64,000 nucleotides of DNA from an uncultured Gemmatimonadales bacterium (GCA_963730185.1 CAVSQW010000014.1:64001-128000); one strand, 5' to 3'; shown: positions 60,757-64,000, counted from the first letter of the stretch. The notes: a model not told the origin generated them from the sequence alone. A program made the numbers and translations.

Positions 60757-62442
60757 GTGAACTTCGTCATCGACGGCGAGGCGTGCGTAGCATGCCTGGC
60801 ATGCGCCCGGGTCTGTCCGACGAACGCCATTGCGGTGGCGCCGGACGCGACCTGGGTCCGGGTCCTCGACGAGGCCTGCATTCGATGCGGGCTTTGCGTC
60901 CCGGAGTGCCCGCACGACGCCATTCAGGTGGCCGGCGAGGTGGGGAACGCGGTGGCGATCGCGGCCGAGGGCCTGGGGGCGTTGATCTTGGGCACGGAGT
61001 GCGCGGCGCACTTCTATCCGGCCACTCCGGAGCAGGTGGTGAACGCCTGCTATGCGTCGGGGTTCCGGGTGGTTTCGCGGGGGGTGATTGGGGACGAGCT
61101 GGTGGCGGCGGAGTATCTCCGGCTCTGGCGGACGGAGACCTGGGGCACCATGCTTCGTTCCAGCGACCCGGTGGTGGTGGAGACGATCCGGAGGGAGTAT
61201 CCGGAGCTGATCCCGTACCTGGCCCCGGTGGCGACCCCGGCAGTTGCGGAAGCGCGCTATCTGCGCTCCATTCATCAGGGCGACCTCAAGATCGTGTATG
61301 CCGGGGTGACCCCACCGGTTGGCAGCGAAGACATCAACGCGAGCATCACCTTCGCGGAGCTGGAGGAGCTCTTCCGGGTCCGGGGGGTGAACCTGCATGC
61401 CCAGCCACTGGTGTTCGCGCGGGTGCCGCAGGAGCGCCGGCGCCACTTGAGCGTGGCGGGCGGGCTGCCGATCGAGCTGCTGGAGGAGGCCAAGCACTCG
61501 AGCCGCCGGTTCCAGAAGGTGCGGGGGCTCAAGGCGCTGAAAGCGATCTCCCGGGCGGTAACGGTCGACCGGATCGACCTGGGCTTCGTGGACGTGATGT
61601 CGTTCGAGGGCGCGCTGGACCATCCGCTCTCGGGTCCGCGGGAGGAGCTCTACTGGCGGCGGGCGGTGGTGCAGAGCACCGAGCCGCCCCGGAGCCGGGT
61701 CCCGGTGGTGGAGCCCGGGGTGGTGGCCAGCATCGGGGCGGTGTTCGACATCCGGCCCCGGCGGGCGGTGGCCGACCCGGAGTCGGTGGAGCAGGTGTTG
61801 AGCGCCATCGGGCTGGGCCCGAACGGGCGCCCCTGGGATTGCCGGGCCTGCGGGTACGCCAGCTGTCGGGACTTTGCCGAGGCGGCGGCCTTGGGGCGGG
61901 CCTCGCTCCGGCAGTGCGGGCCCTACCAGGAGCGGCAGGCCGACGAGGCCCAGCGGGCCGCGGCGACCGACCTCTTGACCGGGCTGGCCACCTTTCGGGT
62001 GCTCCGGGAGCGGCTCCGGCACGAGGTGGAGCGGAGCAAGCGGAGCGGAGATCGGTTCACGGTCCTGTTCATGGACCTGGACCGGCTCAAGGAGATCAAC
62101 GACCAGTACGGGCACGAGTCGGGCAACGACGTGCTTCGGGCGGTCGCGCAGGAGGTGCGGGCGGCGGTGCGGGCCTCGGATCTGGCGGCGCGGTACGGCG
62201 GCGACGAGTTCGTGGTGATCCTGACCCGGACCGATCAGGTGGGTGCCGAGCGGGTGGCGGAGGCGGTGCGTCACGGGGTGGAGGCGGTGGGCCGCCGGTT
62301 GGGCTATCCCGAGGGAATCGTGACGGTGAGCGTGGGGATCGCCGAGTACGATCCCGACCGCCCGTCGAGCGGAGACTTGCTGGTGAACGCGGATCGCGCT
62401 CTGTACAAGGCCAAGGCCTCGGGGCGTAACACGGTGGTCTAG
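60757..62442 (+). CDS. Fe-S diguanylate cyclase: 2x[4Fe-4S] + degenerate [FeFe]-hydrogenase-like domain + FeS + GGDEF
   Basis: CVACLACARVCP, CIRCGLCVPECP; 'YPELIPYLAPVATP'; CRACGYASC...C; 'RASDLAARYGGDEF'; 'ADRALYKAK'. Confidence 0.85.
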   Translation: MNFVIDGEACVACLACARVCPTNAIAVAPDATWVRVLDEACIRCGLCVPECPHDAIQVAGEVGNAVAIAAEGLGALILGTECAAHFYPATPEQVVNACYASGFRVVSRGVIGDELVAAEYLRLWRTETWGTMLRSSDPVVVETIRREYPELIPYLAPVATPAVAEARYLRSIHQGDLKIVYAGVTPPVGSEDINASITFAELEELFRVRGVNLHAQPLVFARVPQERRRHLSVAGGLPIELLEEAKHSSRRFQKVRGLKALKAISRAVTVDRIDLGFVDVMSFEGALDHPLSGPREELYWRRAVVQSTEPPRSRVPVVEPGVVASIGAVFDIRPRRAVADPESVEQVLSAIGLGPNGRPWDCRACGYASCRDFAEAAALGRASLRQCGPYQERQADEAQRAAATDLLTGLATFRVLRERLRHEVERSKRSGDRFTVLFMDLDRLKEINDQYGHESGNDVLRAVAQEVRAAVRASDLAARYGGDEFVVILTRTDQVGAERVAEAVRHGVEAVGRRLGYPEGIVTVSVGIAEYDPDRPSSGDLLVNADRALYKAKASGRNTVV

Positions 62443-62467: not shown

Positions 62468-63214
62468 GTGACGGGACCCAATCCGAGGCCACACGAGCCG
62501 GCCGCCCGGCCAAGCGGGCCGGCGGCCGCCCAGGAGACGATGCCGGATCCGTGGGGCGTGCGGCGGGCGGAGAACCTGCTGACCACCCTCGAGGGGATCC
62601 TGTCGGCCCGGGTGGTGACCACTCCCCTGGGGGAGGTCAGCGAGATCCACGTGCTGGCCCAGTCGGGGCTCTCGGCCAAGCAGCTGGTGCGGAACATCGA
62701 GTCGGCCCTGCTGGCGCATCTGGGTCTCAAGGTGGACCATCGGAAGATCAGCATCGCCCAGACGGCCGAGGTCAAGCCGCTGGAGACGCTGGAGCACGTG
62801 GCGGTGCGCGAGCGGGCGATGCAACGGGCGGTCCTGTTCGAGGACCTGGCGGTACACCAGTCCGGCCGGGCGCAGCGGATCACGATCGCGGTGACCCTGT
62901 CGTTCGGTGGGCGGCAGGAGACGGTGGAGCAGGACGTCGCCGACACCCCGCGGGGCCGGGTGGAAGGCGCCGCCCGGGCCACGGTAGGCGCGCTGGAGCG
63001 GTTCGTGGAGCGGAACGCGCTGGCGCTGGAGAGCGTCCAGATCGTCGACGCGATCGACCGGAGTGTGGTGTTCGTGGCGGTGCAGGGGATCGGGGGCCGG
63101 GACGCGGTGCTGTTGACGGGCACGGCGGAGATCCGGCAGAACCCCGAGCGGGCGGCGGTATTTGCGGTGCTGGACGCGACCAATCGCTGGGCGGATGCGC
63201 GGCGACCCGCCTGA
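62468..63214 (+). CDS. conserved hypothetical protein
   Basis: RBS GAGGGGAG; 'EIHVLA...KQLVRNIESAL...VDHRKISIAQ'; C-terminal 'AVLDATNR'. Confidence 0.75.
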   Translation: MTGPNPRPHEPAARPSGPAAAQETMPDPWGVRRAENLLTTLEGILSARVVTTPLGEVSEIHVLAQSGLSAKQLVRNIESALLAHLGLKVDHRKISIAQTAEVKPLETLEHVAVRERAMQRAVLFEDLAVHQSGRAQRITIAVTLSFGGRQETVEQDVADTPRGRVEGAARATVGALERFVERNALALESVQIVDAIDRSVVFVAVQGIGGRDAVLLTGTAEIRQNPERAAVFAVLDATNRWADARRPA

Positions 63215-63220
63215 GCGGTA

Positions 63221-63275
63221 GGGACTTGGGAGTCGGGAGTAGTGACTCGGGAGTGAGTGGTGAGTAGGCAGTAGG
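63221..63275. repeat. heptamer-repeat array, single arm (third copy of the family)
   Basis: GGGACTT GGGAGTC GGGAGTA GTGACTC GGGA GTGAGTG GTGAGTA GGCAGTA. Confidence 0.8.
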
Positions 63276-63441
63276 GGCAGCTTCACGAACGGAACAGAAA
63301 GGAACGGTAGGGAGGGAACCCCGGTCTTCGCGGCAGGAGAGCGGAGCAGAGCGGACAACTGAGCGGAGCGTTTGATGGGCCATAGCGGGGCCCGTCCTTC
63401 TTGGTCGACTAACCAGAAGGACCCGAAGGGGGGTGACGCTC

Positions 63442-63525
63442 ATGATCAGCTGGCTCGCAGCTATCGCCGTCGGCGCTGTGCAGTTCGTGGCTGGACTGTT
63501 CTTTGCTGAGACGATGTCTTGGTGA
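63442..63525 (+). CDS. 27-aa hydrophobic peptide MISWLAAIAVGAVQFVAGLFFAETMSW (absent from the ORF track)
   Basis: Strong RBS GAAGGGGGGTGA about 5 nt upstream; ATG 63442, stop TGA 63523-63525 followed by a second TGA; lies 32 bp before the next gene. Confidence 0.7.
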   Translation: MISWLAAIAVGAVQFVAGLFFAETMSW

Positions 63526-63557
63526 TGATCTAGGGTTCCCTCCCTACCAAGTCTTCA

Positions 63558-64000
63558 ATGGATCGAACTCGATCGCGCGTCAATGCTTTCGTTGTCGGCG
63601 TTGGGAGCCTCGCTCTTGCGTCGATGTTGCTGGCGTGGCGAGTTCGACCGCCCTTCCCGGGCTTTTGGGCGCTGTCAGTCTTCGTTGCAGTTGGCGCCTT
63701 GTTGGAACTGACTAGCACCCAGCAAAAGGCAACAGGCGCCACAGGCAACATCTCCTTCGTCATCGACCTTTCGGCACCTTTGATCTTTGGCGGCTTCTGG
63801 GCTGCACTGATTACAGCGCTACGCGTTCTCGTCAGCAACCTCCTTGGCCGTAAGGCGCCGATTCGGGTCGCGTTCAATCTTGCCCAGACTACGCTTGCGG
63901 TCGTCGTCGCGTCGACCGTCTACCATATACTGGTGCCGCAGATCCCGCCGCGGCTACTGGTCGACTATGCGAGCCTTCCGTTTGATGAGGTATTGCGGCA
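63558..64000 (+). CDS. multi-TM sensor (MASE-type) protein, 3'-truncated by window end (absent from the ORF track)
   Basis: Open frame MDRTRSRVNAFVVGVGSLAL...GNISFVIDLSAPLIFGGFWAALI...RKAPIRVAFNLAQ..., with no stop up to 64000; about 5 hydrophobic segments. Confidence 0.75.
   Translation, partial: MDRTRSRVNAFVVGVGSLALASMLLAWRVRPPFPGFWALSVFVAVGALLELTSTQQKATGATGNISFVIDLSAPLIFGGFWAALITALRVLVSNLLGRKAPIRVAFNLAQTTLAVVVASTVYHILVPQIPPRLLVDYASLPFDEVLR

Follow-up and report, generated by a model that had tools for sequence, protein, structure and literature searches.

The staphylococcal agr and Bacillus ComQXPA cassettes are characterised by a hypervariable block that spans the mature peptide and its receptor membrane sensor. 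In agr, the peptide is accompanied by the AgrB peptidase and a histidine-kinase receptor, and in ComQXPA by the isoprenyl transferase ComQ and the ComP kinase, where the signal ComX features a conserved Trp near its C-terminus, as in the peptides described here. Short hydrophobic open reading frames (ORFs) with a Shine–Dalgarno (SD) sequence sequestered inside a long-range stem are typical of leader-peptide control and of type I toxin mRNAs, and type I toxin–antitoxin systems combine a cationic membrane peptide with an antisense antitoxin RNA. Another group of peptide-receptor pairs, the RNPP systems, forms allele groups (‘pherotypes’) with export, processing and Opp-dependent re-import of the peptide, according to PMC4147580, and the diversification of Rap-Phr pairs is treated in PMC5199041 and PMC11343458.

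MASE9-HD-GYP proteins, such as Thermotoga maritima TM1467 and Streptomyces venezuelae HdgA, are a named family, of which the receptor encoded at our locus is an ordinary member. Ligand binding within the membrane has been proposed for MASE9, with no ligand named in the available portion of the preprint (10.1101/2021.11.05.467447), the main text of which, in that portion, does not contain the word ‘peptide’. The accessible parts of the MASE9-HD-GYP literature describe no ligand, fold, upstream peptide or leader RNA (10.1101/2021.11.05.467447, PMC6205966). Deletion of the Streptomyces MASE9 gene hdgA led to no developmental phenotype, which the authors suggested could reflect missing activating signals (PMC6205966).

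The window analysed here is a stretch of 64,000 nucleotides from an uncultured Gemmatimonadales bacterium, and ends within a gene for such a protein. A 27-codon ORF precedes this gene, and its C-terminal tail changes in step with the MASE9 sensor across related species; the ORF product is therefore likely to be the precursor of a strain-specific peptide signal for this orphan sensor. The features of the locus, in window coordinates unless a contig is given, are:

60757–62442, plus strand: Fe-S/[FeFe]-hydrogenase-large-subunit-like domain fused to a GGDEF diguanylate cyclase, 561 aa (Pfam Fer4, Fe_hyd_lg_C, FeS and GGDEF)
62468–63214, plus strand: conserved hypothetical protein, about 224 aa from the ATG at 62540, with a small alpha/beta N-domain and a LeuA-type allosteric C-domain
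63306–63321, plus strand: 5' arm of helix P0, a perfect 16-bp complement of 63533–63548
63340–63372, plus strand: three AGCGGA repeats in invariant alignment columns, the third entering the 5' strand of P1
63366–63441, plus strand: folded domain P1–P3, in which P1 pairs 63366–63372 with 63435–63441
63374–63396, plus strand: hairpin P2 with an invariant UAGCG loop
63428–63434, plus strand: peptide SD, over which P3 pairs
63442–63525, plus strand: peptide gene, 27 aa (ATG 63442, TGA 63525), a hydrophobic body of 22 aa followed by the tail ETMSW
63533–63548, plus strand: 3' arm of P0, in the spacer after the peptide stop, where a receptor SD would sit
63558–64000 and on to 65039 past the window (G000:C14:127558-129039), plus strand: predicted MASE9-HD-GYP receptor/phosphodiesterase, 493 aa
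G000:C14:129050-132364, outside the window, minus strand: convergent BTAD-AAA-TPR (STAND) regulator, a frequent but non-obligate partner

The peptide gene and its leader RNA

The 27-codon ORF is a conserved gene. Its position, the SD-like motif ahead of it (GGGGGGT), the 32-nt spacer that separates it from the receptor ATG at 63558 and the base composition of 63541–63600 (GC 32/60) are all as given by the first-pass annotation. An in-frame GTG at 63433 would lengthen the product by three residues; ATG 63442 is the start kept behind the SD among relatives. A whole-genome screen returned 599 SD-plus-ATG hits opening ORFs of 20–40 codons, where one ORF may be hit repeatedly; 10 distinct ORFs encoded a hydrophobic body and only the ORF at 63442–63525 additionally had a Trp in the last two residues. 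Codons 24–26 are the hypervariable positions of the peptide, while Trp27 is invariant and the Glu that opens the tail is nearly so. Across the 13 peptides from the genus, 12 of the first 23 residues never vary, the three positions preceding the Trp hold 6, 6 and 4 different residues, and 10 distinct tails are found when counted from the shared Glu onward, among them ETMSW, EKVSW, EVQSW, EAQSW, ETNSW, ETNNW, EGVDWR, EATDWK and EGLNW. Among all 122 family peptides, the tail lacks Trp in three. Peptides from L035, L246, L256, L258, L117 and L092 terminate in Leu, Phe or Ile rather than Trp, and the MASE9 pockets of these loci would offer a natural test of the Trp site. Frameshifts, either from assembly error or from decay, interrupt the peptide or the start of MASE9 in L047, L069, L012/L160, L142, L143, L150, L151 and L315.

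The body had initially been considered to resemble a signal peptide. The family does not bear out a classical Sec/SPase I signal: K or R occurs within the first six residues in 26 of 122 peptides, residues −1 and −3 are both small in just 35 of 122, and the shortest peptides have only 14–16 aa. The residue preceding the Glu position is small in 104 of 122. The median net charge of the peptides is 0 and there is no cationic tail. Tryptophan attenuation was rejected as a function for this ORF, given its one terminal Trp codon, the three Trp-less tails and the covariation described below, which attenuation would leave unaccounted for.

A conserved folded RNA (63306–63548) encloses the peptide ORF, a feature that goes beyond the first-pass annotation. 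Across 29 loci, 80% of cells in its four helices are paired and both partners change in 22 of 38 pairs. The pairing score beats all 500 shuffles and all slid registers, with the proviso that the structure was derived from the same 29 sequences used in the counting, which favours it. Pairing amounts to 96% of cells in P1, 91% in P2 and 85% in P3, changes on both sides affect 13 of 16 P0 pairs (29 loci) and 8 of 9 P2 pairs, and the leader folds with z = −4.8. The stability of P0 exceeds that obtained with shuffled spacers (z below −2) in 99 of 105 loci; exchanging the own spacer for those of other loci costs 9 kcal/mol on average, yet the own spacer is the best in only four loci. The helix is also kept in other classes with wholly different sequence. 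The peptide SD has a mean pairing probability of 0.80 (60 loci). An SD-like motif precedes the receptor ATG in only 10 of 105 loci, and is lacking from our own receptor, so P0 covers a start region without an SD. The first spacing between the AGCGGA repeats is 10 nt (89 of 109 loci) and the second 12–22 nt; the invariance of the AGCG(G/A)A repeats in the alignment hints at a site for a protein.

Searches of this region for known elements gave no Rfam match at E ≤ 1 (63100–63700) and no sigma-70 site in a promoter scan. The terminator-like hairpin at 63374–63396 is P2; it was rejected as a terminator because, in relatives, its run of pyrimidines is base-paired as part of P3. DNA sites for the BTAD regulator are a disfavoured reading of the AGCGGA repeats, given the second spacing of 12–22 nt and the persistence of the repeats where the regulator is undetected. 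Delivery of a ‘split SD’ to the receptor start by P0 was also set aside, with the upstream purine motif present in only 70 of 105 loci. Two contigs of relatives (227 and 217 nt) in one metatranscriptome library, which may contain DNA, span the leader and peptide only, with ends near both P0 arms (window 63315–63541, run X1). Such ends would fit a distinct processed RNA, as far as contigs of a single study can tell.

The receptor, its neighbours and their distribution

Pfam analysis of the gene at 63558 identified MASE9 (PF20972, 30.6 bits against a cut-off of 24.3, residues 48–233) N-terminal to HD-GYP (HD_5, 117 bits), one of the two domain pairs expected by the first-pass annotation. The HD, HHExxDGxGYP and D..RxY motifs are intact in this protein and in 103 of 103 homologues, and these motifs predict that the receptor hydrolyses c-di-GMP or a related dinucleotide. 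The Fe-S/GGDEF cyclase, with a GGDEF motif and an RxxD site, occupies the same position in 20 of 20 long loci and is a probable redox or gas input to the same c-di-GMP pool as the receptor. The hypothetical protein between cyclase and leader has no Pfam hit of its own and no PDB sequence match, and LeuA_dimer is detected in 4 of 65 homologues. Its AF2 model (pLDDT 84.5) matches LeuA in Foldseek (E 2.7e-6), residues 96–224 align with the CimA regulatory domain (VIA Z 10.0), and the N-domain has a generic fold (CDF C-terminal domain, adenylation subdomain, PrgK).

All 20 long loci taken from the best hits share one gene order: Fe-S/GGDEF cyclase, hypothetical protein, leader and peptide, MASE9-HD-GYP and the convergent BTAD-AAA-TPR regulator. 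The regulator is found in all 20 of these family loci; it was not detected in several other-family loci with room for it that retain the peptide and MASE9, nor is it among the genes of two records from other phyla. No peptidase or exporter is encoded among the five conserved locus genes, and the five-gene locus has no EcfAA'T module. Genes for Opp-type binding proteins (SBP_bac_5) are present in the genome, as well as in 11 of 14 control genomes. One clade (L034:2265-2864, also L049, L065 and L079) features an HTH_17-REC response-regulator gene between the hypothetical protein and the leader.

A homologous ORF of 21–35 aa precedes the receptor in all 30 of the best family loci, which were picked by score and include our own. 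For a reverse check, GTDB was scanned with an RNA pattern built from the best family loci, which yielded 120 loci, partly overlapping the first set. Of those with at least 150 nt downstream, 98 of 103 open an ORF of 14–42 codons and 91 of 103 have Trp in the last five residues. MASE9 follows in 63 of the 67 pattern loci with at least 600 nt downstream; the other four are records of other phyla in which the ORF is also absent, and are read as chance matches. A further 25 loci came from other families and classes of Gemmatimonadota, of which two were cut by contig ends; 21 of the 23 scored have Trp within three residues of the peptide end, and the hypothetical protein gene is present in 22 of 23. 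Short Trp-ending ORFs ahead of receptor orthologues, which the first-pass annotation had predicted, are therefore what these searches returned. A MASE9 match at E ≤ 1e-10 is present in 244 of 401 family genomes, many of them incomplete and four of them unpublished; the unpublished four enter this tally only. A search for phage copies gave no MASE9 relative among viral contigs.

Evidence from outside Gemmatimonadota is limited to two plasmid-collection records, since a genome labelled Bacillota gave the same Gemmatimonadota set. The Natranaerobius (Bacillota) record features a homologue of the upstream hypothetical protein (probability 99.8), AGCGRA repeats, a peptide, MASE9 and DUF5317, with the receptor broken into two frames. 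This peptide has 28 aa and the end SFTWGGGG, and its basic N-terminus and the small residues ahead of the tail resemble a cleavable signal. In the Nonomuraea (Actinomycetota) record, a 34-aa ORF with an SWT end (read by eye) lies ahead of a receptor whose MASE9 score of 18.4 bits is below the Pfam cut-off, and the upstream-protein gene is absent from the locus. Two tandem membrane HD-type genes follow this peptide (L314:2303-4950), like Streptomyces hdgA-hdgB. The loci L102 and L058, labelled Bacillota and Dehalococcoidia, have the Gemmatimonadota-type module; L102 falls in the Gemmatimonadota genome set, so these labels are probably wrong or the contigs misbinned.

Predicted fold of MASE9 and its covariation with the peptide tail

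An AF2 model of receptor residues 1–250 (pLDDT 88, 30 rows) was compared with known structures. Foldseek matched MASE9 to ECF S-components (probability 1.0, E 0.01 or worse), and the top 21 rows of a VIA alignment were all ECF S-components (Z 9.7–13.0, rmsd 2.8–4.4, 152–196 aligned residues) ahead of a first unrelated family at Z 6.4, with the caveat that Z under about 13 may reflect a common helical-bundle arrangement. On these models, MASE9 residues 32–216 are predicted to adopt the six-helix ECF S-component fold in inverted orientation. The extra first helix of MASE9 aligns with the extra N-terminal helix of NikM/CbiM, and in NikM the substrate pocket, which lies on the side of the N-terminus, is occupied by a loop of nine residues (PMC3945884). 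MASE9 has eight helices from its basic N-terminus to the cytoplasmic HD-GYP domain, and loops L1, L3 and L5 average 1.7, 2.6 and 2.8 K+R, compared with 0.7, 0.0, 0.9 and 0.8 in the other loops (105 rows). Helix parity and these positive-inside counts place the pocket loops L1, L3 and L5, together with the N-terminus, on the predicted cytoplasmic side. The conserved residues S64, N107, Q110, N163 and D194, plus F67, W183 and Y193, lie in the cytoplasm-side half, and the predicted pocket is lined by S64, F67, N107, Q110, N163, W183 and D194.

To compare alleles, 122 unique loci were reduced to the 105 with a full MASE9 and upstream protein, a frameshifted copy being dropped, and 37 independent close pairs were formed, with no locus in more than one pair and at least 85% identity in the upstream protein (the backbone). 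This showed the covariation of peptide and receptor that the first-pass annotation had anticipated. MASE9 identity falls with the number of tail differences (rho −0.80, and −0.82 when controlled for the backbone), where the comparison correlations are 0.36 for MASE9 with the peptide body and −0.36 for HD-GYP with the tail. Median MASE9 identity is 0.94, 0.80, 0.59, 0.46 and 0.51 at 0, 1, 2, 3 and 4 tail differences, at a backbone identity of 0.92–0.97. For example, two pairs with a 98% identical backbone have MASE9 identities of 42% (tails EGVDWR and EVQSW) and 39% (EAQSW and ETNSW), and a pair with an 84% identical backbone and the tails ETNSW and ETNNW has 71%. In 20-locus trees, MASE9 clades match tail types (support 99–100%) and split well-supported backbone sisters; our own ETMSW locus clusters with EKVSW in the MASE9 tree.

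A correlation with MASE9 identity is also seen for the non-coding spacer (partial rho 0.68). The block is thus inherited as a unit, and linkage accounts for part of the covariation between tail and MASE9. With the spacer controlled, the tail still predicts MASE9 (−0.57, p 0.0003). Within receptor classes (65–85% identity), 30 tail codons are the same, 16 differ synonymously and 14 non-synonymously. Neutral change gives a synonymous to non-synonymous ratio of roughly 1:3, and 16:14 is far from this; the tail codons are constrained inside a receptor class. MASE9 columns were tested by permuting tails inside backbone clusters (96 rows, family-wise threshold), which gave A47, E50, V90, T111, K186 and A187 at a clustering of 0.82, and A47, V90 and T168 at the stricter 0.86. 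Every column above threshold is on the cytoplasmic side, as are 52% of variable columns, and when all variable columns are considered the cytoplasmic side covaries no more than the periplasmic (Mann–Whitney p 0.24 and 0.56). The one-sided position of the tail-covarying columns is suggestive, not proof. Positions of the peptide body covary with V135 and P141 of a periplasmic loop at one of the two clusterings.

The first-pass annotation had further proposed a hypervariable cassette of low GC, and both properties were recovered, in a block that extends beyond its proposal into the C-terminal part of the regulator. GC falls from 0.72 in the upstream gene to 0.57 in the peptide ORF and 0.59 in 63558–64000. 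Fourfold-site GC, a measure unaffected by hydrophobic codons, is 0.94 in the hypothetical protein (73 loci), 0.62 in MASE9 and 0.67 in HD-GYP (76 loci), and 0.59 in the TPR region (66 loci), so the compositional signal is a family-wide trait. In G000, the genome of the window, fourfold-site GC drops from 0.95–0.97 to 0.55–0.77 at the receptor and recovers past the last 400 codons of the regulator. In a rough control with other membrane-protein windows (three or more TM segments, wrong-frame ORFs among them), MASE9 was the lowest of 9 and of 10 windows, with medians of 0.64 and 0.59; a genome-wide distribution of the same statistic was set aside as contaminated by wrong-frame ORFs. Compared with two genomes of the same genus, identity is 81% for the cyclase, 78–79% for the hypothetical protein and 85–86% for HD-GYP, as against 36–38% for MASE9 and 27% for the C-terminal region of the regulator. 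The low GC of the block would be explained if, once diverged, it had escaped GC-biased conversion. The C-terminal region of the regulator is 24–37% identical among long family loci, and its last 400 residues are 31% and 44% identical in two pairs with nearly identical tail and MASE9. As a side observation, this region may be a second, rapidly evolving sensor that responds to something different from the peptide tail.

Proposed mechanism and comparison with known systems

In the mechanism that we propose, the folded leader would hide the peptide SD, and the LeuA-domain protein encoded upstream would probably gate the leader through the AGCGGA repeats. Through P0, production of the receptor, which has no SD, would depend on translation of the peptide or on processing of the RNA. 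The tail would be released after the small residue before Glu, exported, and returned via an oligopeptide permease to the inward pocket, which is the logic of Phr/Rap with a membrane receptor. There, the Trp-ending tail would bind the cytoplasm-facing MASE9 pocket and switch the predicted c-di-GMP phosphodiesterase; activation as the direction of control is a guess. A consequence of export and return would be that cells respond to their own allele group. We infer with good confidence that the tail binds MASE9, and regard its arrival at the pocket as an exported, re-imported Phr-like signal as evenly balanced. A signal between cells is favoured because old alleles cross species lines and because the boundary after the small residue is sharp, while the scarcity of classical signal peptides, the lack of a peptidase or exporter in the locus and the diderm envelope that would have to be crossed count against the export route.

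Tail binding does not demand export, since the intact peptide could remain anchored in the inner membrane of the producing cell, its body beside MASE9 and its uncleaved Trp tail in the cytoplasm-facing pocket; the leader RNA would then set the ratio of peptide to receptor, and this ratio would be the signal. The covariation of tail and MASE9 fits this equally, as do a pocket placed in the cytoplasm by parity and positive-inside counts, peptides that mostly lack an n-region or AxA rule, a locus without a processing gene, the existence of peptides of 14–16 aa, and the covariation of the body with V135 and P141 at one clustering. However, it is not obvious why a private pair would have many old alleles exchanged between species, the low-GC block and the sharp boundary between constant body and variable tail after a small residue are left unexplained, and the Natranaerobius peptide resembles a cleavable signal. 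We therefore consider a resident, uncleaved peptide somewhat unlikely.

Two readings in which the tail does not bind MASE9 fit the data less well. The ORF could be a leader peptide only, whose translation opens P0 and so controls receptor synthesis, with the covariation a result of hitch-hiking in a recombining block. Such control by RNA would account for the strongly supported leader structure, the stability of P0 relative to shuffled spacers, the SD-less receptor and a spacer that covaries with MASE9 as well. It does not account for the constraint on tail amino acids inside receptor classes, a tail that predicts MASE9 even with the spacer controlled, an invariant Trp and near-invariant Glu, covarying MASE9 columns that gather on one face, or the Trp-ending peptide ahead of the Nonomuraea receptor although the upstream regulator gene is absent there, and we judge it improbable. 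The TPR region of the convergent regulator could alternatively be the peptide receptor, in an RRNPP-like manner, with MASE9 merely travelling in the block. The regulator is a constant member of the long family loci, its C-terminal region is hypervariable and low in fourfold-site GC, and an all-pairs partial Mantel test links tail and TPR region (0.27–0.33). Yet TPR identity does not track the tail in close pairs (partial rho −0.28, p 0.19, n 23), and is low (for example 0.31 and 0.44) where tail and MASE9 are nearly identical. The regulator is undetected in several loci with peptide and MASE9, and absent from the genes of the two other-phylum records; we give this reading very little credence.

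Returning to a tail that binds MASE9, we tentatively propose that MASE9 is an S-component of vitamin and metal transporters that was turned inside-out and repurposed as a receptor for Trp-tailed peptides, and that the locus represents a new class of peptide kin-recognition or quorum-sensing system with c-di-GMP as its direct output. Dozens of allele groups would then exist in this diderm phylum of soil bacteria, and Bacillota and Actinomycetota would contain relatives of the system. If so, the orphan MASE9 family would gain a ligand, a fold and an orientation, and the silent Streptomyces MASE9 mutant, for which its authors invoked a missing activating signal, would be explained. Peptide receptors would also acquire a class that acts by turning over a second messenger, not through a kinase or a transcription factor, and this in a Gram-negative phylum that is common in soil but has hardly been studied. 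The claim is testable, as the natural alleles provide many five-residue peptides that can be combined with matching and non-matching receptors. A literature search at title and abstract level, mostly outside subscription papers, found no description of this module; its new parts, undescribed in the searchable literature, are the allele-matched peptide, the predicted inverted S-component fold and the leader.

Each of the known systems is matched in part. The predicted MASE9 fold is that of ECF S-components (FolT, RibU, ThiT, BioY and NikM/CbiM), but the pocket loops and NikM-type N-terminus, which lie outside in S-components, are predicted to be inside in MASE9, which also has an added C-terminal helix leading to HD-GYP, 8–17% identity and a signalling rather than a transport context. 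A short hydrophobic ORF, a sequestered SD and a long-range 5'–3' stem are shared with leader-peptide and type I toxin mRNAs; in contrast to these, the tail co-evolves with a downstream protein, the median net charge of the peptides is 0 and the RNA matches no Rfam family at E ≤ 1. As in agr and ComQXPA, one hypervariable block carries the peptide and its putative receptor membrane sensor between conserved flanks, but Pfam and NCBIfam identify no AgrB or histidine kinase, and no ComQ or ComP kinase, in the five locus genes, there is no ring-forming core with a trailing tail, and the predicted pocket faces inward. Of the two analogies drawn by the first-pass annotation, AgrD/AgrC and Phr/Rap, only the latter fits, because a pocket that faces the cytoplasm is at odds with an AgrC-like receptor. 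The likeness to Phr/Rap and other RNPP/RRNPPA systems, as portrayed in PMC4147580, PMC5199041 and PMC11343458, consists of a short precursor adjoining its receptor, a variable C-terminal 5–6-mer, allele groups and a ligand site reached from the cytoplasm. A short C-terminal peptide that varies in step with its receptor is common to both, whereas the covarying partner here is a polytopic membrane MASE9 protein whose predicted output is enzymatic, in place of a soluble TPR receptor, most peptides lack a Sec-type signal peptide (the Natranaerobius member is signal-like), the host is diderm, the leader is structured, and export and re-import are putative. The locus thus works like a peptide-receptor specificity cassette, but one that stands outside the RRNPP, agr and ComQXPA families.
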